From assembly GCF_003018255.1 (NCBI RefSeq), contig NZ_CP027440.1: a stretch of DNA of 64,000 nt, one strand, 5' to 3'. Positions 1,696-38,551 of this stretch are shown here, piece by piece. The notes below the pieces were generated by a model. It saw nothing but the letters and a program-made list of their open reading frames with translations, was not told the origin of the DNA and did not search any database. Source of the DNA: Escherichia coli. GTDB taxonomy: Bacteria; Pseudomonadota; Gammaproteobacteria; Enterobacterales; Enterobacteriaceae. The stretch's first letter is position 1. Each line of letters opens with the position of its first letter. Both the position numbers and the translations under genes were made by a program.

Positions 1696-3135
1696 ATGTC
1701 TATTGTGGTGAAAAATAACATTCATTGGGTTGGTCAACGTGACTGGGAAGTGCGTGATTTTCACGGTACAGAATATAAAACGCTGCGCGGCAGCAGCTAC
1801 AACAGCTACCTCATCCGCGAAGAAAAAAACGTGCTGATCGACACCGTCGACCATAAATTCAGCCGCGAATTTGTGCAGAACCTGCGTAATGAAATCGATC
1901 TGACGGATATCGATTACATCGTAATTAACCATGCTGAAGAGGACCACGCCGGGGCGCTGACCGAACTGATGGCACAAATTCCCGATACGCCGATCTACTG
2001 TACTGCCAACGCTATCGACTCGATAAATGGTCATCACCATCATCCGGAGTGGAATTTTAATGTGGTGAAAACAGGCGACACGCTGGATATCGGCAACGGC
2101 AAACAGCTCATTTTTGTCGAAACGCCAATGTTGCACTGGCCGGACAGCATGATGACTTACCTGACAGGCGACGCGGTACTGTTCAGTAACGATGCTTTCG
2201 GTCAGCACTACTGCGACGAGCATCTGTTCAACGATGAAGTGGATCAGACGGAGCTTTTCGAGCAGTGCCAGCGTTATTACGCCAATATCCTGACGCCGTT
2301 CAGCCGCCTGGTAACGCCGAAAATTACCGAGATCCTGGGCTTTAACTTACCAGTCGATATGATAGCGACCTCTCACGGCGTGGTATGGCGCGATAACCCG
2401 ACGCAAATTGTCGAGCTGTACCTGAAATGGGCGGCGGATTATCAGGAAGACAGAATCACCATTTTCTACGACACCATGTCGAATAATACCCGCATGATGG
2501 CCGATGCTATAGCCCAGGGTATTGCGGAAACCGACCCACGCGTAGCGGTGAAAATTTTCAACGTCGCCCGAAGCGATAAAAACGAAATCCTGACCAATGT
2601 CTTCCGCTCAAAAGGCGTGCTGGTCGGCACTTCGACGATGAATAACGTGATGATGCCAAAAATCGCCGGGCTGGTGGAGGAGATGACTGGTTTACGCTTT
2701 CGTAACAAACGCGCCAGTGCTTTCGGCTCTCACGGCTGGAGCGGCGGTGCGGTGGATCGTCTTTCCACACGCCTGCAGGATGCGGGTTTCGAAATGTCGC
2801 TTAGCCTGAAAGCCAAATGGCGACCGGACCAGGACGCTCTGGAGCTATGTCGTGAACACGGTCGCGAAATCGCCCGTCAGTGGGCGCTCGCGCCGCTGCC
2901 GCAGAGCACGGTGAATACGGTGGTTAAAGAAGAAACCTCTGCCACCACGACGGCTGACCTCGGCCCACGGATGCAGTGCAGCGTCTGCCAGTGGATTTAC
3001 GATCCGGCAAAAGGCGAGCCAATGCAGGACGTTGCGCCAGGAACGCCGTGGAGTGAAGTTCCGGATAACTTCCTGTGCCCGGAATGCTCCCTTGGCAAAG
3101 ACGTCTTTGACGAACTGGCATCGGAGGCAAAATGA
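1696..3135 (+). CDS. norV: Anaerobic nitric oxide reductase flavorubredoxin
   Basis: ORF track 479 aa; metallo-beta-lactamase-like N-terminus, flavodoxin-like core, C-terminal rubredoxin CxxC...CPxC (CSVCQW...CPEC). Confidence 0.96.
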
Positions 3136-8839: not shown

Positions 8840-11730
<2,891 letters not shown>

Positions 11731-25775: not shown

Positions 25776-26204
25776 ATGGCAGTTTCAGCAAGAAATCAAT
25801 TAACCGGAACAGTTAGCACAGTAGCAATGGGCGCTGTGAATGATGAAGTAGAACTGACGCTGGCAGGTGGTGCAAAGCTGGTGGCAATTGTGACTCACAG
25901 CAGCCAGCAAGCGCTGGGTCTGGCGAAAGGGAAAGAAGCGATTGCCCTGATTAAAGCCCCGTGGGTCACGCTGGCAACGGAAGACTGTGGACTGAAATTC
26001 TCTGCTCGCAACCAGTTTGCTGGCAGCGTGTCGACAATCACCGAAGGCGCAGTGAACGCCACTGTCCATATCAAAACGGATGCGGGTTTTGAAATTGTGG
26101 CAGTGGTAACAAATGAAAGTCAGGATGAAATGAAACTCACCACTGGCTCGCGCGTTATTGCATTGATCAAAGCATCAGCCATCCTGATTGCCACCAAAGC
26201 GTAA
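25776..26204 (+). CDS. Small di-Mop (tandem TOBE-domain) molybdate/tungstate-binding protein (molbindin)
   Basis: ORF track frame 25737..26204; start placed at ATG 25776 preceded by AAAGGAGG; two tandem ~70-aa repeats each beginning SARNQ(L/F)xG..S and ending ALIKA (MAVSARNQLTGTVS...ALIKAPWV / FSARNQFAGSVS...ALIKASAI). Confidence 0.75.
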   Translation: MAVSARNQLTGTVSTVAMGAVNDEVELTLAGGAKLVAIVTHSSQQALGLAKGKEAIALIKAPWVTLATEDCGLKFSARNQFAGSVSTITEGAVNATVHIKTDAGFEIVAVVTNESQDEMKLTTGSRVIALIKASAILIATKA

Positions 26205-26872: not shown

Positions 26873-29434
26873 ATGAGAACAATAGAAAATTTCGACGCCC
26901 ATACGCCTATGATGCAGCAGTATCTCAAGCTGAAAGCCCAGCATCCCGAGATCCTGCTGTTTTACCGGATGGGCGACTTTTATGAACTGTTTTATGACGA
27001 CGCAAAACGGGCGTCGCAACTGCTGGATATTTCACTGACCAAACGCGGTGCTTCAGCGGGAGAGCCAATCCCGATGGCGGGGATTCCCTACCATGCGGTG
27101 GAAAACTACCTCGCCAAACTGGTGAATCAGGGCGAATCGGTTGCTATTTGTGAACAGATTGGCGATCCGGCGACCAGCAAAGGGCCGGTCGAGCGCAAAG
27201 TTGTCCGTATCGTTACGCCGGGCACCATCAGCGATGAAGCGCTGTTGCAGGAACGTCAGGACAACCTGCTGGCGGCTATCTGGCAGGACAGCAAGGGGTT
27301 CGGCTACGCCACGCTGGATATCAGCTCCGGGCGTTTTCGCCTGAGCGAACCGGCGGACCGCGAAACGATGGCGGCAGAACTGCAACGTACGAATCCAGCG
27401 GAATTACTGTATGCGGAAGATTTCGCCGAGATGTCGCTGATTGAAGGTCGCCGCGGCCTGCGTCGTCGCCCGCTGTGGGAGTTTGAAATCGACACCGCTC
27501 GCCAGCAATTGAACCTGCAATTTGGCACCCGAGATCTGGTCGGTTTTGGTGTGGAGAACGCACCACGCGGACTTTGTGCTGCCGGTTGTCTGTTGCAGTA
27601 TGCGAAAGATACCCAACGCACGACCCTGCCGCATATTCGTTCTATCACTATGGAACGTCAGCAGGACAGCATCATTATGGATGCCGCGACGCGTCGTAAC
27701 CTGGAAATTACTCAGAACCTGGCCGGCGGTGCGGAAAATACGCTGGCTTCAGTGCTCGACTGTACTGTAACGCCGATGGGTAGTCGTATGCTGAAACGCT
27801 GGCTGCATATGCCAGTGCGCGATACCCGCGTGTTGCTTGAGCGCCAGCAAACTATTGGCGCATTGCAGGATTTCACCGCCGAGCTGCAGCCGGTACTGCG
27901 TCAGGTCGGCGACCTGGAACGTATTCTGGCGCGTCTGGCTTTACGAACTGCTCGTCCACGCGATCTGGCCCGTATGCGTCACGCTTTCCAGCAACTGCCG
28001 GAGCTGCGCGCGCAACTGGAAGGTGTCGATAGCGCCCCGGTACAAGCACTGCGTGAGAAGATGGGCGAGTTTGCCGAACTGCGCGACCTGCTGGAGCGAG
28101 CAATCATCGACACGCCGCCGGTGCTGGTACGCGACGGTGGTGTTATTGCGACTGGTTATAACGAAGAACTGGATGAATGGCGCGCGCTGGCTGACGGCGC
28201 GACCGATTATCTGGAGCGTCTGGAAGTCCGCGAGCGTGAACGTACTGGCCTGGACACCCTGAAAGTCGGCTTTAACGCGGTTCATGGTTATTACATTCAG
28301 ATCAGCCGTGGACAAAGCCATCTGGCACCCATCAATTACATGCGTCGCCAGACGCTGAAAAACGCCGAGCGCTACATTATTCCAGAGCTAAAAGAGTACG
28401 AAGACAAAGTTCTCACTTCAAAAGGCAAAGCACTGGCACTGGAAAAACAGCTTTATGAAGAGTTGTTCGACCTGCTGTTGCCGCATCTGGAAGCGTTGCA
28501 ACAGAGCGCGAGCGCGCTGGCGGAACTCGACGTGCTGGTGAACCTGGCGGAACGGGCCTATACGCTGAACTACACCTGCCCGACCTTTATTGATAAACCG
28601 GGTATTCGCATCACCGAAGGCCGCCATCCGGTGGTTGAACAGGTGCTGAATGAGCCGTTTATCGCCAACCCGCTGAACCTGTCGCCGCAGCGTCGCATGT
28701 TGATCATTACCGGTCCGAATATGGGCGGTAAAAGTACCTATATGCGCCAGACCGCACTGATTGCGCTGATGGCCTACATCGGCAGCTATGTACCGGCACA
28801 AAAAGTCGAGATTGGACCTATCGATCGCATCTTTACCCGCGTAGGGGCAGCGGATGATCTGGCATCCGGGCGTTCAACCTTTATGGTGGAAATGACCGAA
28901 ACCGCCAATATTTTACATAACGCCACCGAGTACAGTCTGGTGCTGATGGATGAGATTGGGCGTGGAACGTCCACTTACGATGGTCTGTCGCTGGCGTGGG
29001 CGTGCGCGGAAAATCTGGCGAATAAGATTAAAGCGTTGACGTTGTTTGCTACCCACTATTTCGAGCTGACCCAGTTACCGGAGAAAATGGAAGGCGTCGC
29101 CAACGTGCATCTCGATGCACTGGAGCACGGCGACACCATTGCCTTTATGCACAGCGTGCAGGATGGCGCAGCGAGCAAAAGCTACGGCCTGGCGGTTGCA
29201 GCTCTGGCCGGCGTGCCAAAAGAGGTTATTAAGCGCGCACGGCAAAAACTGCGTGAGCTGGAAAGCATTTCGCCGAACGCCGCCGCTACGCAAGTGGATG
29301 GTACGCAAATGTCTTTGCTGTCAGTGCCAGAAGAAACGTCGCCTGCGGTCGAAGCACTGGAAAATCTCGACCCGGATTCACTGACTCCGCGTCAGGCGCT
29401 GGAGTGGATTTATCGCTTGAAGAGTCTGGTGTAA
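26873..29434 (+). CDS. mutS: DNA mismatch repair protein MutS
   Basis: ORF track 853 aa; Walker [10 protein letters not shown], conserved mismatch-binding N-terminus (GDFYELF). Confidence 0.97.
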
Positions 29435-29440
29435 TAACAA

Positions 29441-29475
29441 TTCCCGATAGTCTTTTGCTATCGGGAATATTAACG
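29441..29475 (+). terminator. Putative mutS terminator hairpin
   Basis: TTCCCGATAG-TCTTTTG-CTATCGGGAA perfect 10-bp stem 7 nt after the mutS stop; weak U-tract. Confidence 0.5.
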
Positions 29476-29539
29476 ACAACTGACGAATCAAATAAAAATA
29501 CCCTGTATAATAGGAAATCTTATTTTACAGGGTAAAACC

Positions 29540-30196
29540 ATGCCATCTACACGCTACCAAAAAATCAATGCCCATCACTATCACCATATATGGGCCGTTG
29601 GTGATATTCATGGTGACTATCAATTATTACAATCCCGCTTACATCAACTCTCTTTTTGTCCTGAAACCGACTTGCTTATTTCTGTCGGCGATAACATCGA
29701 TCGTGGGCCCGAGAGTCTTAACGTGCTGCGCCTGTTAAACCAGCCCTGGTTTATCTCCGTCAAAGGCAACCACGAAGCGATGGCGCTTGAGGCATTCGAA
29801 ACTGGCGATGGAAATATGTGGCTTGCCAGCGGTGGTGACTGGTTTTTCGATTTAAATGATTCAGAGCAACAAGAGGCAATAGATCTGTTGCTGAAATTCC
29901 ATCACCTTCCACATATTATTGAAATCACTAACGACACCATAAAATATGTCATCGCACATGCAGATTATCCGGGGAAGGAGTATCAGTTTGGCAAAGAAAT
30001 AGCGGAGAGCGAATTACTCTGGCCTGTTGATCGTGTGCAGAAATCACTTAATAGCGAATTACAAAAAATAAACGGCGCTGATTATTTTATATTTGGACAT
30101 ATGATGTTTGATAACATTCAGACGTTCGCAAACCAGATTTATATTGATACCGGATCGCCGAAAAGCGGGCGGCTGTCATTTTATAAAATAAAGTAG
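29540..30196 (+). CDS. pphB: Serine/threonine protein phosphatase 2 (lambda-PPase-like metallophosphatase)
   Basis: ORF track 218 aa; metallophosphatase motifs GDIHG, GDNIDRG, GNHE; AT-rich relative to neighbours. Confidence 0.92.
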   Translation: MPSTRYQKINAHHYHHIWAVGDIHGDYQLLQSRLHQLSFCPETDLLISVGDNIDRGPESLNVLRLLNQPWFISVKGNHEAMALEAFETGDGNMWLASGGDWFFDLNDSEQQEAIDLLLKFHHLPHIIEITNDTIKYVIAHADYPGKEYQFGKEIAESELLWPVDRVQKSLNSELQKINGADYFIFGHMMFDNIQTFANQIYIDTGSPKSGRLSFYKIK

Positions 30197-30246
30197 TCTC
30201 ATGCTTCTTCTGTGAAGCATGAGTAACCCGGCGTTATTGCAGGTCA

Positions 30247-31016
30247 TTATTCATTTTTCGCTACCAGCAAAGAGAGATCCAGCTTCGCCAGCGCGCGGCT
30301 GGCACTCTCCGGCAGACCATCGTCAGTAATGATCTGATCAAACTCGCTTAATGGTAACGCCAGCCATGTCGCCACCTGTCCATATTTCGTCGCATCACAG
30401 ACCAAAACTCGCTGGCGGCTGGCACTGGCAATCGCCCGTTTCACCGTGACTTTATCTTCTGCTGGCGTAGAGATCCCCCGCACACTCCATGACGATGCAG
30501 AAATAAAAGCCTGATCAATCATCAGGCTACGCAGCATGGTCGCAGCGGCTTCCCCAACACAGGAACGGTTTTCCCGACACACTGCGCCGCCAGTGTGAAT
30601 AATTGTGCAATTACTGTTGTCGAGCAAGTAGTCCGCAATAACGAAGTCGTTAGTAACCACTGTGAGTGGCTCCATGTGAGTCAGATGCTGTGCAATCGCT
30701 AACGTGGTCGTTCCCGCATCCAGATAGATACAACGTCCCGGCTGAACAAGACTTGCCGCCAGCTTGCCAATAGCCGCTTTTTGCGTCATTGCCAGCGCAG
30801 TTTTTACCTGATGAGAAGGTTCATGCGCCACCCGTCCCGGAGACTGGACGCCCCCGGACACCAACACAACGGCTCCCTGCTGCTCCAGTTTTTGTAAATC
30901 CCGACGAATGGTCATATGTGACACATTCATTCTGTCCGTTAGTTCAGCAATACTAACAATGCCTTTTTCAGCTACCATCTCAAGGATGATTTGGCGACGC
31001 TCTACGGGTATCAACT
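30247..31016 (-). CDS. ygbI: DeoR-family transcriptional regulator
   Basis: ORF track frame 30247..31044 (265 aa from ATG); the conserved N-terminus as I recall it (MIPVERRQIILEMV...) would correspond to a TTG start at 31016 preceded by AGGAAGGA; DeoR HTH plus sugar-binding domain. Start codon uncertain (31016 vs 31044). Confidence 0.85.
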
Positions 31017-31209
31017 TTTGCTCCTTCCTTTGTCCTGCTGACATTCTACGCTATTTGCCTGCGAAACGTGCGCGGCGCAACTAACGCTTAGTTCACATAA
31101 AATAACATACAATGTTAATTTTTGTGAATCAGCTCACCATATCGTTATCTTTCCGCGCTTATATTCACAACATCAAACAAAATATCACTTAAATTAACAA
31201 GGAGAGCAG

Positions 31210-32118
31210 ATGAAAACGGGATCGGAGTTTCATGTCGGTATCGTTGGCTTAGGGTCAATGGGAATGGGAGCAGCACTGTCATGTGTCCGCGCAGGTCTTT
31301 CTACCTGGGGCGCAGACCTGAACAGCAATGCCTGCGCTACGTTGAAAGAGGCAGGTGCTTGCGGAGTTTCTGATAACGCCGCGACGTTTGCCGAAAAACT
31401 GGACGCTCTGCTGGTGCTGGTGGTCAATGCGGCCCAGGTTAAACAGGTGCTGTTTGGTGAAACAGGCGTTGCACAACATCTGAAACCCGGTACGGCAGTA
31501 ATGGTTTCTTCCACTATCGCCAGTGCTGATGCGCAAGAAATTGCTACCGCTCTGGCTGGATTCGATCTGGAAATGCTGGATGCGCCAGTTTCTGGTGGTG
31601 CAGTAAAAGCCGCTAACGGTGAAATGACTGTCATGGCCTCCGGTAGCGATATTGCCTTTGAACGACTAGCACCCGTGCTGGAAGCCGTTGCCGGAAAAGT
31701 TTATCGCATAGGTGCAGAACCGGGACTAGGTTCGACCGTAAAAATTATTCACCAGTTGTTAGCGGGCGTACATATTGCTGCCGGAGCCGAAGCGATGGCA
31801 CTTGCAGCCCGTGCGGGGATCCCGCTGGATGTGATGTATGACGTCGTGACCAATGCCGCCGGAAATTCATGGATGTTCGAAAACCGGATGCGTCATGTGG
31901 TGGATGGCGATTACACCCCGCATTCAGCCGTCGATATTTTTGTTAAGGATCTTGGTCTGGTTGCCGATACCGCCAAAGCCCTGCACTTCCCGCTGCCATT
32001 GGCCTCAACAGCATTGAATATGTTCACCAGCGCCAGTAACGCGGGTTACGGGAAAGAAGACGATAGCGCAGTTATCAAGATTTTCTCTGGCATCACCCTA
32101 CCGGGAGCGAAATCATGA
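31210..32118 (+). CDS. ygbJ: NAD-dependent beta-hydroxyacid dehydrogenase (L-threonate dehydrogenase-like)
   Basis: ORF track 302 aa; N-terminal Rossmann GxGxxG (VGIVGLGSMG), 3-hydroxyisobutyrate dehydrogenase family. Confidence 0.92.
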   Translation: MKTGSEFHVGIVGLGSMGMGAALSCVRAGLSTWGADLNSNACATLKEAGACGVSDNAATFAEKLDALLVLVVNAAQVKQVLFGETGVAQHLKPGTAVMVSSTIASADAQEIATALAGFDLEMLDAPVSGGAVKAANGEMTVMASGSDIAFERLAPVLEAVAGKVYRIGAEPGLGSTVKIIHQLLAGVHIAAGAEAMALAARAGIPLDVMYDVVTNAAGNSWMFENRMRHVVDGDYTPHSAVDIFVKDLGLVADTAKALHFPLPLASTALNMFTSASNAGYGKEDDSAVIKIFSGITLPGAKS

Positions 32119-33377
32119 TCAAGATTGGCGTTATCGCCGATGATTTTACCGGCGCGACGGATATCGCCAGTTTTCTGGTGGAAAACGGTCTACCAACGGT
32201 ACAAATTAACGGTGTTCCAACAGGTAAAATGCCGGAAGCAATCGACGCACTGGTGATCAGCCTGAAAACGCGCTCCTGTCCGGTGGTTGAAGCCACACAG
32301 CAATCGCTGGCGGCTCTGAGCTGGTTGCAACAGCAAGGTTGCAAACAGATCTATTTCAAATACTGCTCTACTTTCGACAGTTCGGCGAAAGGTAATATCG
32401 GCCCGGTTACCGATGCATTAATGGATGCTCTCGACACGCCGTTTACGGTCTTCTCTCCGGCCCTGCCGGTCAACGGACGTACGGTTTATCAGGGGTATTT
32501 GTTCGTAATGAATCAACTGCTGGCCGAATCCGGGATGCGCCATCACCCGGTAAATCCCATGACCGACAGCTATCTTCCCCGTCTGGTTGAAGCGCAATCC
32601 ACAGGGCGCTGCGGCGTCGTTTCGGCACATGTTTTCGAACAAGGTGTGGATGCCGTTCGTCAGGAGCTGGCTCGCTTACAGCAAGAGGGCTACCGCTACG
32701 CGGTGCTTGATGCGCTGACCGAACACCATCTGGAAATTCAGGGAGAAGCCTTGCGCGATACCCCACTGGTAACGGGCGGTTCTGGTCTGGCGATTGGCCT
32801 TGCCCGGCAGTGGGCGCAAGAAAACGGTAACCAGGCTCGCGAAGCAGGGCGTCCGCTCGCTGGGCGCGGCGTAGTGCTCTCCGGTTCATGCTCTCAAATG
32901 ACCAACCGCCAGGTGGCACATTACCGTCAAATTGCACCAGCCCGTGAGGTTGATGTGGCACGCTGCCTCTCAACCGAAACTCTGGCCGCTTATGCACACG
33001 AGCTGGCAGAGTGGGTTCTGGGCCAGGAAAGTGTACTTGCTCCACTGGTTTTTGCCACCGCCAGCACTGACGCATTGGCAGCAATTCAACAGCAATACGG
33101 TGCACAAAAAGCCAGTCAGGCAGTGGAAACACTGTTTTCTCAACTAGCGGCGCGGTTAGCAGCGGAAGGCGTGACACGCTTTATTGTCGCAGGCGGTGAG
33201 ACCTCCGGCGTAGTCACACAGAGCCTGGGCATAAAAGGTTTTCATATTGGCCCAACCATTTCCCCCGGCGTGCCGTGGGTAAACGCACTGGATAAGCCTG
33301 TCTCACTCGCCCTTAAATCTGGCAACTTCGGTGATGAAGCCTTTTTTTCACGAGCCCAAAGAGAGTTTTTATCATGA
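32115..33377 (+). CDS. ygbK: DUF1537-family acid-sugar kinase (3-oxo-tetronate kinase-like)
   Basis: ORF track 420 aa; N-terminal MIKIGVIADDFTGATD typical of the four-carbon acid sugar kinase family; operon position. Confidence 0.9.
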   Translation: MIKIGVIADDFTGATDIASFLVENGLPTVQINGVPTGKMPEAIDALVISLKTRSCPVVEATQQSLAALSWLQQQGCKQIYFKYCSTFDSSAKGNIGPVTDALMDALDTPFTVFSPALPVNGRTVYQGYLFVMNQLLAESGMRHHPVNPMTDSYLPRLVEAQSTGRCGVVSAHVFEQGVDAVRQELARLQQEGYRYAVLDALTEHHLEIQGEALRDTPLVTGGSGLAIGLARQWAQENGNQAREAGRPLAGRGVVLSGSCSQMTNRQVAHYRQIAPAREVDVARCLSTETLAAYAHELAEWVLGQESVLAPLVFATASTDALAAIQQQYGAQKASQAVETLFSQLAARLAAEGVTRFIVAGGETSGVVTQSLGIKGFHIGPTISPGVPWVNALDKPVSLALKSGNFGDEAFFSRAQREFLS

Positions 33378-34012
33378 GCGATTTCGCAAAAGTAGAGCAG
33401 TCTTTGCGAGAGGAGATGACGCGGATTGCCAGTTCATTCTTTCAGCGCGGATATGCAACTGGTTCGGCTGGCAATCTGTCGCTGCTTTTACCTGACGGGA
33501 ATTTACTGGCGACACCGACAGGTTCATGCCTGGGCAATCTCGATCCGCAGCGGCTTTCCAAAGTCACCGCGGATGGCGAATGGTTAAGTGGTGACAAACC
33601 CTCGAAAGAGGTGCTCTTTCATCTGGCGCTGTATCGCAACAATCCGCGCTGTAAAGCGGTAGTGCATTTGCACAGTACGTGGTCGACGGCGCTTTCCTGC
33701 CTGGAAGGGCTGGACAGCAATAACGTTATTCGGCCGTTCACACCATACGTGGTGATGCGGATGGGAAACGTCCCGCTGGTGCCCTATTACCGACCGGGCG
33801 ATAAACGCATCGCACAGGATCTGGCGGAACTGGCAGCAGACAATCAGGCTTTTTTACTGGCAAATCATGGCCCAGTGGTTTGCGGTGAAAGCCTGCAAGA
33901 AGCCGCCAACAATATGGAAGAGCTAGAGGAAACGGCAAAGCTGATTTTTATTCTCGGTGACCGCCCGATCCGTTATCTGACCGCAGGTGAAATTGCGGAA
34001 TTAAGGAGTTAA
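33374..34012 (+). CDS. ygbL: Class II aldolase/adducin-family protein (3-oxo-tetronate 4-phosphate decarboxylase-like)
   Basis: ORF track 212 aa; class II aldolase fold signatures (HLHS, NHG), operon position. Confidence 0.9.
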
Positions 34013-34016
34013 TGCA

Positions 34017-34793
34017 ATGCCTCGTTTTGCAGCTAATTTATCCATGATGTTCACCGAAGTGCCTTTTATTGAACGCTTCGCCGCAGCGCGAAAAGCCGGG
34101 TTCGATGCTGTGGAGTTTCTGTTTCCCTATGACTACTCCCCCCAGCAAATCCAGCAGCAACTGGCGCAAAACCACCTGACGCTGGCGCTGTTCAATACCG
34201 CTCCCGGAGATATTAATGCGGGAGAATGGGGATTATCCGCCCTTCCCGGACGTGAGCACGAAGCACGTGCAGACATCGACCTGGCACTGGAATATGCATT
34301 GGCGCTCAATTGTGAACAAGTCCATGTGATGGCAGGCGTCGTGCCCGCTGGCGAAGATGCTGAACGGTACCGGGCAGTATTTATTGATAATCTCCGCTAC
34401 GCTGCCGACCACTTTGCGCCACACGGCAAGCGAATATTGGTTGAAGCACTCAGCCCCGGCGTTAAGCCTCATTATCTCTTCTCCAGCCAGTATCAGGCAC
34501 TGGCTATTGTTGAAGAGGTTGCGCGAGATAACGTTTTTATTCAACTAGATACTTTCCATGCGCAAAAAGTAGATGGCAACCTGACGCATTTAATCCGCGA
34601 CTACGCCGGGAAATATGCGCACGTACAAATTGCCGGACTACCTGATCGACATGAACCGGACGATGGAGAAATCAACTATCCGTGGCTGTTCCGCCTGTTC
34701 GATGAAGTGGGATATCAGGGCTGGATCGGTTGTGAATACAAACCTCGTGGCCTCACCGAAGAAGGACTTGGCTGGTTTGACGCCTGGCGCTAA
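34017..34793 (+). CDS. ygbM: Hydroxypyruvate isomerase-family protein (2-oxo-tetronate isomerase-like, TIM barrel)
   Basis: ORF track 258 aa; [13 protein letters not shown]-terminus of Hyi/OtnI family. Confidence 0.9.
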
Positions 34794-34881
34794 TTCGTTA
34801 AATCCCCAATTACAACGTACCCATACATCCCCCCATCTACGGATGGGGTAGGTTAACTATAACTTTCAGACAGGGTTTCCC

Positions 34882-36246
34882 ATGTCCACAATTACATTGT
34901 TATGCATTGCGTTAACTGGCGTAATCATGCTGTTGCTGCTGGTCATCAAGGCAAAGGTACAACCATTCGTTGCTCTGCTCCTCGTCAGCCTGTTAGTCGC
35001 ACTTGCGGCGGGTATACCGGCGGGCGAAGTGGGTAAAGTGATGATCGCCGGGATGGGCGGTGTGCTTGGTTCCGTCACTATTATTATTGGTCTGGGCGCT
35101 ATGCTGGGGCGTATGATCGAACACTCTGGTGGTGCAGAGTCACTGGCTAATTATTTCAGTCGCAAGTTAGGCGACAAACGAACTATCGCTGCGCTGACTC
35201 TGGCAGCGTTCTTCCTCGGTATTCCCGTCTTCTTTGATGTCGGCTTTATTATTCTTGCGCCAATCATTTACGGTTTTGCCAAGGTTGCCAAAATATCACC
35301 ACTCAAATTTGGTCTGCCTGTCGCTGGGATCATGCTCACTGTTCACGTGGCGGTACCGCCTCATCCAGGCCCTGTCGCCGCAGCGGGGTTACTCCACGCA
35401 GACATCGGCTGGCTAACCATCATCGGTATTGCGATTTCTATTCCCGTAGGGATTGTTGGCTACTTTGCAGCGAAAATAATCAATAAGCGCCAATATGCGA
35501 TGTCGGTCGAGGTACTGGAACAGATGCAACTGGCTCCGGCCAGTGAGGAAGGCGCGACAAAATTAAGCGATAAAATAAATCCACCGGGCGTCGCGCTGGT
35601 CACCTCGCTAATTGTTATTCCTATCGCGATTATCATGGCGGGTACGGTTTCCGCAACACTGATGCCGCCTTCGCATCCCCTGCTTGGTACGCTACAGCTG
35701 ATCGGCTCACCAATGGTAGCTCTAATGATTGCGCTGGTGCTGGCATTCTGGTTATTGGCTTTACGTCGCGGCTGGAGCTTACAACACACCAGCGACATTA
35801 TGGGCTCAGCCCTTCCCACTGCGGCGGTAGTGATTTTGGTTACTGGTGCTGGAGGGGTATTTGGCAAAGTGCTGGTGGAATCGGGCGTCGGTAAAGCCCT
35901 TGCCAACATGTTACAAATGATTGACCTGCCTCTGTTACCAGCCGCATTTATTATTTCACTGGCGCTGCGTGCATCGCAGGGGTCAGCAACCGTAGCAATC
36001 CTGACAACCGGCGGGTTACTCTCAGAAGCGGTGATGGGATTGAATCCAATTCAGTGCGTATTGGTGACGCTGGCAGCCTGCTTTGGTGGGCTTGGCGCGT
36101 CACATATTAATGACTCAGGGTTCTGGATTGTGACCAAATATCTGGGGTTGTCGGTAGCAGACGGGCTGAAAACCTGGACAGTGTTAACGACCATTCTCGG
36201 TTTTACCGGATTCTTAATTACCTGGTGCATATGGGCGGTAATTTGA
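34882..36246 (+). CDS. ygbN: GntP-family acid-sugar permease
   Basis: ORF track 454 aa, multi-pass hydrophobic, GntP-like. Confidence 0.9.
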   Translation: MSTITLLCIALTGVIMLLLLVIKAKVQPFVALLLVSLLVALAAGIPAGEVGKVMIAGMGGVLGSVTIIIGLGAMLGRMIEHSGGAESLANYFSRKLGDKRTIAALTLAAFFLGIPVFFDVGFIILAPIIYGFAKVAKISPLKFGLPVAGIMLTVHVAVPPHPGPVAAAGLLHADIGWLTIIGIAISIPVGIVGYFAAKIINKRQYAMSVEVLEQMQLAPASEEGATKLSDKINPPGVALVTSLIVIPIAIIMAGTVSATLMPPSHPLLGTLQLIGSPMVALMIALVLAFWLLALRRGWSLQHTSDIMGSALPTAAVVILVTGAGGVFGKVLVESGVGKALANMLQMIDLPLLPAAFIISLALRASQGSATVAILTTGGLLSEAVMGLNPIQCVLVTLAACFGGLGASHINDSGFWIVTKYLGLSVADGLKTWTVLTTILGFTGFLITWCIWAVI

Positions 36247-36253
36247 CCTTAAT

Positions 36254-36290
36254 AAAAGGTCCGATGGGCATCGGACCTTTTATTTAGCGC
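36254..36290. terminator. Bidirectional terminator between convergent ygbN and ecdD
   Basis: AAAAGGTCCGAT-GGGC-ATCGGACCTTTTATTT: stem flanked by A-run and T-run, usable on both strands. Confidence 0.75.
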
Positions 36291-36520
36291 TTACCTTCCG
36301 CCAGCAGCGGCGGGATGCTCGGCACCATCGGCGCGTCATCAATATCTTTCTGCGTCATGCGGAACGCTTCGGGATAATGTTCGCGGCTGGTGCGGCGTAG
36401 CGGTTCGGTATCGCGCCAGGTATAGAGGCAATGCTGGCACTGGTAGACCATCCAGACATCTTTTACCGGCGATTTCGCCATCACTTCAATCTGTTCATCG
36501 GCACAACGTGGACAAATCAT
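36284..36520 (-). CDS. ecdD: Small subunit D of hydroxyarylic-acid (4-hydroxybenzoate/vanillate-type) decarboxylase
   Basis: ORF track 78 aa with zinc-ribbon-like Cys pairs (CPRCADEQ ... CQHC); immediately downstream of UbiD-like gene in same operon. Confidence 0.72.
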   Translation of the reverse strand: MICPRCADEQIEVMAKSPVKDVWMVYQCQHCLYTWRDTEPLRRTSREHYPEAFRMTQKDIDDAPMVPSIPPLLAEGKR

Positions 36521-36530
36521 CTTGTTCTCC

Positions 36531-37958
36531 TTATTGACGTGCGGCCAGCATAGCGGTCAGTTTTTCAGCCCAGGCTTTGGTTTCCGGTAAGTCCACCACC
36601 GGCTGGCTGTAGTGACCACGGTTGTCCGGGGCGACAGGCGTGGTGGCGTCGATAATCAGCTTGTCGGTGATCCCCGCCGGACTTGAGCCAGGGTCGAGTT
36701 CCAGCACGGACATATTCGGCAACTGTACCAAATCCCCTGCCGGGTTCACTTTCGAGGAGAGCGCCCACATCACCTGCGGCAGGTTGAACGGATCAACGTC
36801 TTCATCGACCATAATCACCATCTTCACGTAGCCCAGACCGTGCGGCGTGGTCATCGCACGCAGGCCCACCGCGCGGGCAAAGCCGCCGTAGCGTTTTTTG
36901 GTGGAGATAATCGCCAGCAGGCCGTGGGTGTACATGGCGTTTACCGCCTGCACTTCCGGGAACTCGGCTTTCAGTTGTTGATACAGCGGCACGCAGGTGG
37001 CAGGCCCCATCAGGTAGTCGATTTCGGTCCACGGCATACCAAGATAGAGCGATTCGAAAATCGGTTTGGTACGGTAAGAGACTTTATCGATACGCACCAC
37101 GGTCATGTTACGCCCGCCGGAGTAGTGGCCGGTAAACTCACCGAACGGCCCTTCAATCTCACGTTTACGACTTTCGATAACCCCTTCGAGGATCACTTCC
37201 GAGCCCCACGGCACATCAAAACCGGTCAGCGGGGCGGTGGCGATCGGGTACGGGCTTTCGCGCAGCGCGCCTGCCATTTCGTACTCAGACTGATCGTATT
37301 TCAGCGGCGTGGCCCCCATTAGGGTGATGATCGGATCGTTACCGAGTGTGATGGCAATCGGCAGATCTTCACCGCGCTCTTCTGCTTTATGCAGATGCAG
37401 GGCGATATCGTGCATCGGCACCGGTTGCAGGCCGAGCTTACGCTTGCCCTTCACTTCCATGCGGTAGATGCCGACGTTCTGCTTGCCGAAGTTATCCGGG
37501 TCGAGCGGATCGCGGGAAACCACGCACGCTTTATCGAGATAGAAACCGCCATCACCGTCGTTTAAACGAAACAGCGGCAGAATATTGAACAGGTTGATCT
37601 CGTCGCCATCGACGGTGTTCTGCGCCCAGGCTGGATTGGCGCGGCGCTCCGGGGCAATGGGGAAGTTATCCCAGCGGCGGATAAACTCATCAATCTGTTT
37701 TTTAACCGGGGTGTTTGGCGGCAGGCCGAGGGAAATCGCGTGGTTCTGCCAGGAACCGATGGTGTTCATTGCCACGCGGGCATCGATAAAGCCGCGAATA
37801 TTATCAAACCAAAGCGCGGGCGCGCCGTCGCCGATACGCCCGGTGGCGTTGGCTGCGGCTGCCAGATCCGGTTCCGCGTTCACCTCTTCGCTGATTTTCA
37901 GTAACTGGCCGTGGTCATCAAGCGCCTGTAAAAAGCTGCGTAAATCATCAAATGCCAT
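36531..37958 (-). CDS. ecdC: UbiD-family (prenylated-FMN-dependent) decarboxylase, subunit C of hydroxyarylic acid decarboxylase
   Basis: ORF track 475 aa; UbiD-family length and layout; between UbiX-like gene and small D subunit. Confidence 0.88.
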   Translation of the reverse strand: MAFDDLRSFLQALDDHGQLLKISEEVNAEPDLAAAANATGRIGDGAPALWFDNIRGFIDARVAMNTIGSWQNHAISLGLPPNTPVKKQIDEFIRRWDNFPIAPERRANPAWAQNTVDGDEINLFNILPLFRLNDGDGGFYLDKACVVSRDPLDPDNFGKQNVGIYRMEVKGKRKLGLQPVPMHDIALHLHKAEERGEDLPIAITLGNDPIITLMGATPLKYDQSEYEMAGALRESPYPIATAPLTGFDVPWGSEVILEGVIESRKREIEGPFGEFTGHYSGGRNMTVVRIDKVSYRTKPIFESLYLGMPWTEIDYLMGPATCVPLYQQLKAEFPEVQAVNAMYTHGLLAIISTKKRYGGFARAVGLRAMTTPHGLGYVKMVIMVDEDVDPFNLPQVMWALSSKVNPAGDLVQLPNMSVLELDPGSSPAGITDKLIIDATTPVAPDNRGHYSQPVVDLPETKAWAEKLTAMLAARQ

Positions 37959-38551
37959 TATTCATTCTCCTGAGAAAAATTCCGGGCCTGCGGCAATCCT
38001 TGCCAGCGCCTGGCGTGAGGATGTTCGAGGCCAAATTGATCCAGCACGCGGGCTACCACGTGGTGGACAATGTCATCTACCGTTTCGGGATGGTTATAAA
38101 AGGCAGGCATCGGCGGCACCATCGCCACGCCCATGCGCGAAAGTGCGAGCATATTTTCGAGATGGATTGTGCTAAGCGGCATTTCACGCGGCACCAGCAC
38201 CAGTTTGCGGCCTTCTTTGAGCACGACGTCCGCCGCGCGCCCCACCAGGCCATCGGCGTAACCAGCGCGGATACCGGCGAGCGTTTTCATACTGCATGGA
38301 ATAACGATCATGCCGTCGGTACGAAAGGAGCCGGAAGAGATAGTCGCCGCCTGATCCGCCGGGTTATGGCTGAAGTCTGCGAGGGCGGCAACATCGCGAG
38401 CGCTGTAAGGCGTTTCCAGTTCAATCGTGATTTTCGCCCACTTCGACATCACTAGATGAGTCTCGACATTCGGCATCTCCCGCAGCGCTTGCAGTAATGC
38501 CACACCAAGAGGCGCACCGGTAGCCCCTGTCATCCCGACGATCAGTTTCAT
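37958..38551 (-). CDS. ecdB: UbiX-like flavin prenyltransferase (Pad1-type), subunit B
   Basis: ORF track 197 aa; MKLIVGMTGATGA flavoprotein N-terminus typical of UbiX/Pad1. Confidence 0.9.
   Translation of the reverse strand: MKLIVGMTGATGAPLGVALLQALREMPNVETHLVMSKWAKITIELETPYSARDVAALADFSHNPADQAATISSGSFRTDGMIVIPCSMKTLAGIRAGYADGLVGRAADVVLKEGRKLVLVPREMPLSTIHLENMLALSRMGVAMVPPMPAFYNHPETVDDIVHHVVARVLDQFGLEHPHARRWQGLPQARNFSQENE

Follow-up and report, generated by a model that had tools for sequence, protein, structure and literature searches.

The region 30247-36246 of the window (the whole stretch of 64,000 nucleotides of Escherichia coli DNA analysed here) is, with a probability of about 0.93, the ordinary and already described E. 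coli ygbI/ygbJKLMN locus, in which the repressor YgbI is translated from the TTG codon at 31014 as a protein of 255 aa. Nothing new was seen, as the cluster, the TTG start and the repression of ygbJKLMN by YgbI are all already known. An earlier note, made from the sequence, had described a DeoR regulator gene divergent from five genes, and the six open reading frames are indeed present, the regulator's on the minus strand. The families named there (DeoR, dehydrogenase, DUF1537 kinase, class II aldolase, isomerase and GntP) were borne out by a profile search, in which six out of six cluster proteins exceeded the curated NCBIfam equivalog cut-offs, and the RefSeq gene names agree with the profile-based identities. 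The gene ygbI (30247..31014, minus strand) was assigned to the DeoR/GlpR-family repressor YgbI from NCBIfam NF040890, Pfam, RefSeq and orthologs. On the plus strand follow ygbJ (ltnD in RefSeq) for L-threonate dehydrogenase (31210..32118; NF043037, 473.6 bits, cut-off 350), ygbK (otnK) for 3-oxo-tetronate kinase of the DUF1537 type (32115..33377; 420 aa; NF043035, 597 bits, cut-off 350), ygbL (otnC) with a class II aldolase fold (33374..34012; NF043034, 335 bits, cut-off 250; Pfam Aldolase_II), ygbM (otnI) for 2-oxo-tetronate isomerase (34017..34793; NF043033, 399 bits, cut-off 325; Pfam AP_endonuc_2), and ygbN for a GntP-family permease, presumably an acid-sugar importer (34882..36246; NF007332, 827 bits, cut-off 524; Pfam GntP_permease). 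At the Pfam level, the five products are an NAD-binding dehydrogenase, a DUF1537-type kinase (SBD_N+NBD_C), a class II aldolase fold, a xylose-isomerase-like TIM barrel and a GntP permease. YgbM also matches the structure 1K77 in the PDB, titled 'hypothetical protein ygbM', and OtnK is full-length here, its 420 aa matching 3DQQ (421 aa) over residues 1-418. At the gene junctions, ygbJ/ygbK and ygbK/ygbL each overlap by ATGA, and gaps of 4 nt and 88 nt separate ygbL from ygbM and ygbM from ygbN, respectively. No terminator-like site was found in the 88-nt gap, no attenuator is proposed there, since the hairpin folds no better than shuffled sequences (z -0.47), and an Rfam scan at gathering thresholds found no known RNA elements in 29400-36700.

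The locus in E. coli K-12, ygbI (b2735) with ygbJKLMN, has the same genes, arranged in the same order and orientation and at the same place (mutS-pphB-ygbI...). Over the 1061-bp ygbI segment the two strains are 96.6% identical, and the region comprising the ygbI promoter, ATG, Shine-Dalgarno sequence and TTG is identical. Two differences lie elsewhere. In K-12, a 1-bp deletion in a run of five C (window positions 33262-33266) shortens OtnK to 388 aa, whereas the 420-aa frame here overlaps otnC; and ygbN is followed directly by rpoS in K-12 but by hydroxyarylic acid decarboxylase genes here. The cluster of Salmonella enterica likewise carries a divergent ygbI with a TTG start, encoding an 87% identical protein; it shares ltnD-otnK-otnC-otnI with the present cluster, as well as the operator-like boxes. 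Unlike the present cluster, it includes an equivalog of D-erythronate dehydrogenase (DenD), scoring 451 bits, and its GntP-family permease is a different one.

This last difference bears on the substrate. The cluster had been proposed to match a catabolic module for four-carbon acid sugars, threonate or erythronate. The L-threonate part of the proposal stands, as the four-step module (LtnD, OtnI, OtnK and OtnC) is complete at the equivalog level, with activities predicted by homology. The D-erythronate part does not: a tblastn search of the 64-kb window found no match to the Salmonella DenD equivalog at E<=1e-3, and no entry of D-erythronate is therefore predicted. The chemistry of the pathway comes from Zhang et al. 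2016 (PNAS 113:E4161), here in the form in which PMC12540250 summarises it. By that scheme, LtnD would convert L-threonate to 2-oxo-tetronate, OtnI would isomerise this to 3-oxo-tetronate, OtnK would yield 3-oxo-tetronate 4-phosphate, and OtnC would release dihydroxyacetone phosphate (DHAP) and CO2, and YgbN would serve as the GntP importer. Equivalog-level matches to the four enzymes of Zhang et al. are gathered here in one cluster with a presumed transporter and a repressor. In E. coli, the physiological substrate is inferred to be L-threonate, and the effector of YgbI is likewise inferred; the literature examined contained no report of E. coli growth on L-threonate or of the activities of the E. 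coli enzymes. The operon might instead serve to break down a different C4 acid, for example L- or meso-tartrate, since deletion of ygbI in K-12 confers growth on L-tartrate (PMC8464067) and ygbI mutations arose in both m-tartrate evolutions (PMC6452873). We regard this as improbable, because the scores of the four enzymes all clear the cut-offs of the L-threonate-pathway equivalogs by a wide margin, whereas the tartrate phenotypes require de-repression, have been described as promiscuous or underground activity (PMC6452873) and come from K-12, in which otnK is truncated.

The regulation of the L-threonate operon by YgbI has been documented in K-12. ChIP-exo detected a single YgbI peak, located between ygbI and ygbJ, and deletion of ygbI de-repressed all five genes of ygbJKLMN together (PMC8464067); increased ygbJKLMN expression in ygbI mutants was also reported in PMC6452873 and PMC6892915. 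YgbI resembles the DeoR/GlpR-family proteins GlpR, AgaR and SrlR in combining an N-terminal HTH_DeoR domain with a C-terminal DeoRC sensor domain, and, like YgbI, each of these is a local repressor of a neighbouring catabolic operon. Nevertheless, YgbI falls far short of the GlpR/AgaR/SrlR-type equivalog cut-offs (167 against 260 for AgaR) and constitutes an equivalog family of its own, scoring 478.4 bits against NF040890 (cut-off 400). In the intergenic region, we identified a 37-bp imperfect palindrome, TTCACATAAAATAACAT/ATGTTAATTTTTGTGAA (31092..31128), as a candidate YgbI operator containing two TCACAnAAATTAACA-type boxes. It corresponds to the inverted repeat I1, whose 17-nt arms are 88% complementary, and is kept across genera. 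The box recurs twice more, at 31163-31179 and at 31185-31199 (within 31163..31199; repeat families D1, I2 and I3); these copies overlap the putative ygbJ -10 box and transcription start site (TSS) and the 5' UTR, and show strong cross-genus conservation. The four TCACAnAAATTAACA-like boxes are likely YgbI sites. A CRP-like site, TGTGA-N6-TCACC on the plus strand (31123..31138, centre 31130.5), was read from the sequence about 41.5 bp upstream of the start predicted from the ygbJ -10 candidate TATATT (31160-31165). Read on the other strand, as GGTGA-N6-TCACA, it also occurs in E. albertii, Salmonella and Dickeya; the TATATT hexamer is invariant in five taxa, and the CRP-like site overlaps one candidate operator box. 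The ygbJ promoter may depend on CRP through 31123..31138. As shown in K-12, YgbI binds the ygbI-ygbJ intergenic region and represses the divergent operon, here probably at boxes that overlap both the putative ygbJ promoter and the CRP-like site.

The start codon of ygbI was the one feature that the earlier note had called uncertain, but it was settled in favour of TTG after the TSS mapping of 2009 (PMC2760140), and RefSeq uses TTG. The two codons compared there do exist: an in-frame ATG at 31044 opens the long frame of the open-reading-frame list (30247-31044, minus strand; 265 aa), and the preferred TTG lies in the same frame 30 nt, or 10 codons, downstream, its first base being 31014 rather than 31016 as had been written. 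A strong ribosome-binding site does precede the TTG: the Shine-Dalgarno sequence AAGGAAGGAG (31021..31030, minus strand), 6 nt upstream, forms an anti-Shine-Dalgarno duplex of -8.0 kcal/mol with a spacer of 5, compared with -2.6 kcal/mol and a spacer of 12 for the ATG; E. albertii, Entomohabitans and Salmonella retain this sequence. In K-12, Mendoza-Vargas and co-workers mapped the ygbI TSS to +9 relative to the formerly annotated ATG, 21 nt ahead of the corrected start codon, and they called the old annotation wrong (PMC2760140). Their Table 2 gives the promoter as 'atagCGTAGAATgtca', with CGTAGAAT as the -10 box. Since the window and K-12 are identical over the whole stretch that runs from the -10 box to the end of the start codon, we transferred the TSS to 31035..31036 and the sigma-70 -10 hexamer TAGAAT to 31043..31048, both on the minus strand; the GCGTAGAAT/GCGTAAAAT sequence at the -10 region is kept across Escherichia, Entomohabitans and Salmonella. 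The last two bases of TAGAAT together with the following G form the misleading ATG, and it is because of this coincidence that calling the longest open reading frame over-extends ygbI by 10 codons. The supposed N-terminal extension (31015..31044, minus strand) consists of the ygbI 5' UTR and the -10/discriminator part of the promoter, as the K-12 TSS and the orthologs both indicate. The ygbI mRNA begins some 21 nt ahead of the TTG and comes from a weak sigma-70 promoter whose -10 box (31048-31043) overlaps the ATG; this weak promoter, the non-ATG start and autoregulation would together hold YgbI at few copies per cell, for which 2-6 have been reported (PMC7567609).

Protein comparisons place the conserved N-terminus at the TTG, as had been claimed. 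Positions 1-253 of the NF040890 profile align with residues 11-263 of the long frame, and 21 YgbI ortholog sequences (from Salmonella, Entomohabitans, Scandinavium, Serratia, Yersinia, Pectobacterium, Dickeya, Brenneria, Erwinia, Pantoea and Citrobacter) share an N-terminus that reads MIPVER or nearly so; a single gene call is longer, and its extension is unrelated. This set was gathered via protein matches; a contig search with the single protein gave four loci. In the six loci read as DNA, ygbI begins with TTG in Escherichia, Entomohabitans and Salmonella and with GTG in the other three, from Serratia, Yersinia and Dickeya, and none of the five loci read from Entomohabitans, Salmonella, Serratia, Yersinia and Dickeya has an in-frame ATG, GTG or TTG upstream. 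In Entomohabitans, ATT takes the place of the upstream ATG of Escherichia, and in Salmonella an in-frame TAA interrupts the would-be extension upstream of the TTG. The pair of codons had also been presented as a property of this particular sequence. Both are present here, but the same pair occurs in K-12, and of the 4587 complete E. coli genomes having the locus, 4323 share the identical 91-bp start region. The RefSeq ygbI CDS is 768 nt long, the 255-aa TTG form, both in an identical strain and in K-12. We conclude that TTG 31014 is the real ygbI start, that the current 255-aa annotation is right, and that the 265-aa YgbI is an artefact of open-reading-frame calling, because ATG 31044 lies outside the mapped transcript. 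As to the concern that the start choice affects the helix-turn-helix (HTH) context, the 10 extra residues would precede the HTH, and HTH_DeoR itself (PF08220, residues 16-69 of the 265-aa form, with the DeoRC sensor, PF00455, at residues 86-241) would therefore be unchanged by the choice.

Both starts could be in use if a promoter further upstream produced a small amount of a longer mRNA that gave a 265-aa proteoform beside the main 255-aa protein. A simple consensus scan found two promoter-like matches where 0.6 would be expected, which is weak evidence, and, owing to a poor -35 element, missed the ygbI promoter that experiment supports. One match, TTCACA-18-TATTTT with an extended -10 on the minus strand upstream of ygbI (31128-31099), could in principle yield a longer mRNA that includes the ATG, and low-level initiation at ATG 31044 would be compatible with all the data; the TRAINSPOTTER and INRI-seq supplements make no mention of ygbI, either for the site of translation initiation or for an N-terminal peptide. 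We consider such dual initiation very unlikely, as the promoter-like site falls within the candidate palindromic operator and would be occluded, the ATG of the longer proteoform is without a Shine-Dalgarno sequence, and the non-conserved 10-residue extension implies no function. That the TTG or GTG start, seen in all six genera examined, and a weak autoregulated promoter form a selected device for holding YgbI at few molecules, with the ATG allowing a rare 265-aa read-through proteoform, is a speculation to which we give little credence. Finally, ATG 31044 as the true and only start of a 265-aa YgbI, as in the original K-12 annotation, can practically be dismissed: although no other start codon separates it from the preceding in-frame stop, and although it is a stronger initiator than TTG and is found in nearly all E. 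coli and in E. albertii, the promoter accounts for its conservation inside E. coli, and the codon lies within the -10 box upstream of the mapped K-12 TSS, has no Shine-Dalgarno sequence, precedes the family profile and all orthologs by 10 residues, and is missing in all non-Escherichia orthologs read.

In summary, the analysis confirms the current annotation of a 255-aa YgbI with a TTG start and the names ltnD, otnK and otnC for the genes under its control. K-12, which was used in all published ygbI/ygb experiments, has a lineage-specific frameshift in otnK, and L-threonate catabolism of E. coli would therefore be better tested in a strain with an intact otnK, such as this one.

The ygbI regulator gene starts at a TTG codon (31014), not at the in-frame ATG further upstream (31044), and five independent lines of evidence agree on this assignment: the family profile, the orthologous proteins, the DNA of orthologous loci, the Shine-Dalgarno duplex, and the transcription start site (TSS) of K-12. 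The minus strand at the start reads TAG CGT AGA ATG TCA GCA GGA CAA AGG AAG GAG CAA AAG TTG ATA CCC GTA GAG, and counting from the first ATG gives a long ORF of 265 aa (30247–31044, minus strand). The YgbI family profile of 253 positions begins aligning at residue 11 of this ORF, and RefSeq has ygbI as 768 nt encoding 255 aa. An alignment of orthologous YgbI proteins supports the same start: all 21 ortholog sequences (from Salmonella, Entomohabitans, Scandinavium, Serratia, Yersinia, Pectobacterium, Dickeya, Brenneria, Erwinia, Pantoea, and Citrobacter) share the start position with MIPVER or a close variant, and the single longer gene call among them carries an unrelated N-terminal extension. 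At the DNA level, Escherichia, Entomohabitans, and Salmonella use TTG as start codon, whereas Serratia, Yersinia, and Dickeya use GTG; no in-frame ATG, GTG, or TTG was found upstream of this codon in the orthologous loci read outside Escherichia. The position of the E. coli ATG reads ATT in Entomohabitans, and in Salmonella a TAA stop interrupts the frame five codons 5' of the TTG. The Shine-Dalgarno duplex for the TTG has an energy of −8.0 kcal/mol with a spacing of 5 nt, on par with ygbJ and ygbM, compared with −2.6 kcal/mol and 12 nt for the ATG.

The origin of the misleading ATG can be traced to the promoter. In K-12, Mendoza-Vargas et al. (2009) placed the ygbI TSS at +9 of the ATG annotated as start at that time, and thus 21 nt 5' of the shorter start, gave the −10 element as CGTAGAAT, and called the longer annotation incorrect because orthologs were 10 residues shorter (PMC2760140). 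The window is identical to K-12 base for base across the mapped TSS, −10 element, and start. The ATG is therefore made up of the AT that ends the −10 hexamer TAGAAT (31048–31043) and the G after it, and lies outside the mapped mRNA. The 91-bp start region is identical in 4323 of the 4587 E. coli genomes carrying the locus, and the ATG is conserved within E. coli because it is embedded in the promoter. A search for YgbI in ribosome-profiling and N-terminomic data, TRAINSPOTTER and INRI-seq among them, gave no record, which fits its abundance of 2–6 copies per cell (PMC7567609). The earlier note, which preferred the TTG but placed it at 31016 and called the start uncertain, made a real observation and interpreted it essentially correctly; the question was settled by the 2009 mapping, and the whole observation is already known and present in current annotation.

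The window is E. coli chromosome, with a 1061-bp ygbI segment 100% identical to JNE23-011 and 96.6% to K-12. The ORF listing confirmed the previously given coordinates of ygbI and the five plus-strand genes ygbJ (31210–32118), ygbK (32115–33377), ygbL (33374–34012), ygbM (34017–34793), and ygbN (34882–36246). All six proteins exceed curated NCBIfam equivalog cut-offs, including the YgbI repressor (478 bits versus 400), L-threonate dehydrogenase LtnD (474 versus 350), 3-oxo-tetronate kinase OtnK (597 versus 350), class II aldolase-fold OtnC (335 versus 250), 2-oxo-tetronate isomerase OtnI (399 versus 325), and the GntP-family transporter YgbN (827 versus 524). Their Pfam architectures are consistent with these identities, and RefSeq uses the same gene names in the identical strain and K-12. 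In RefSeq the TIM-barrel protein YgbM is called "HPr family phosphocarrier protein", a name that comes from the description of NCBIfam NF007441 (PRK09989); it looks wrong, since YgbM matches the isomerase equivalog, Pfam AP_endonuc_2, and PDB 1K77.

The locus lies between mutS-pphB and hydroxyarylic acid decarboxylase genes, in the known variable mutS-rpoS region. Of 5426 complete E. coli genomes, 839 lack the ygbI region; the rest carry one chromosomal copy. The genes for decarboxylase subunits D, C (UbiD-like, 36531–37958), and B (UbiX-like, 37958–38551) occupy 36284–38551 on the minus strand, directly after and convergent with ygbN, whereas rpoS immediately follows ygbN in K-12; this segment belongs to the polymorphic mutS-rpoS segment. 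The formate hydrogenlyase activator gene (labelled "flhA" rather than fhlA in RefSeq) and ygbA are separated by a TOBE-domain gene at about 25776–26204 (plus strand; 2577–3005 in the identical strain locus L001), which is without annotation in K-12 W3110. The 9.3-kb contig RKCM01000024.1, labelled as an Oscillospiraceae MAG, is probably a mis-binned E. coli contig: its YgbI shares 98% identity with that of the window, and the sequence upstream of its ygbI is the same as here.

ChIP-exo located one genomic YgbI site, between ygbI and ygbJ and overlapping the ygbJ promoter, and ygbI deletion up-regulated all of ygbJKLMN (PMC8464067). Both laboratory evolutions on m-tartrate gained ygbI mutations, with raised ygbJKLMN expression (PMC6452873; PMC6892915). 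Within the 195-bp intergenic region, a repeat search identified four related boxes with a consensus of about TCACAnAAATTAACA, two forming a 37-bp palindrome (31092–31128) and two further copies at 31163–31179 and 31185–31199. These boxes, the element CTATATTCACA with a −10-like TATATT (31160–31165) invariant in the alignments, and a conserved CRP-like TGTGA-N6-TCACC (31123–31138) form conserved islands in comparison with E. albertii, Salmonella, and Entomohabitans, and recur in Serratia and Dickeya. Judged from the sequence, the four boxes are a candidate YgbI operator that would occlude RNA polymerase and a putative CRP site in class II position. Serratia and Dickeya also have such a box (AATCACAATTATTATCAC / AATCACAATAGTTATCAC) about 25–40 nt 5' of the ygbI GTG, immediately 3' of a TAAAAT −10-like hexamer of ygbI, which suggests that YgbI directly represses its own promoter in these genera, whereas the closest E. 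coli box is ~45 bp upstream of the ygbI −10 element.

The ygbJ/ygbK and ygbK/ygbL junctions are ATGA overlaps, ygbL and ygbM are 4 nt apart, and the 88-nt ygbM-ygbN gap contains no terminator-like site. K-12 has a 1-bp deletion in otnK (C5 to C4 at window 33262–33266; compare 10046–10082 in the K-12 locus L002), which shortens the 420-aa OtnK to 388 aa at the expense of its C-terminal nucleotide-binding domain and leaves a 91-nt gap ahead of otnC. The window carries the intact 420-aa allele, with which OtnK homologs of solved structure (413–421 aa) align end to end. The intact allele is found exactly in 3782 of 4580 genomes and the K-12 allele in 371, of which the 25 listed are laboratory strains, MG1655, C600, J53, and ER1709 among them, or isolates with no stated origin. 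The lesion may partly underlie the separate ygbJK and ygbLM transcription units quoted for K-12 (PMC8464067), the background of all the published ygb experiments consulted.

The Salmonella enterica cluster (L007, 726–3169) differs in having an additional D-erythronate dehydrogenase equivalog (451 bits versus 325) and a different GntP-family permease, scoring 280 bits on the YgbN model, under its cut-off of 524; it adjoins a MarR-family gene, ecdBCD-like genes, and rpoS. The Yersinia pseudotuberculosis ygbI ortholog (L009, 7001–7771; 62% identical, GTG start) is solitary, with no ltnD, otnK, otnC, or otnI within 7 kb on either side.

LtnD, OtnI, OtnK, and OtnC together constitute the four-step L-threonate pathway, in which, as summarised in PMC12540250 from Zhang et al. 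(2016), these enzymes, in this order, turn L-threonate into 2-oxo-tetronate, 3-oxo-tetronate, 3-oxo-tetronate 4-phosphate (the phosphorylation by OtnK), and finally DHAP and CO2. The threonate/erythronate assignment proposed earlier is half right, as the 64-kb window has no homolog of the Salmonella D-erythronate dehydrogenase. Published E. coli phenotypes concern tartrate, after de-repression (PMC6452873; PMC8464067), so that L-threonate as the putative native substrate in E. coli rests on equivalog homology.
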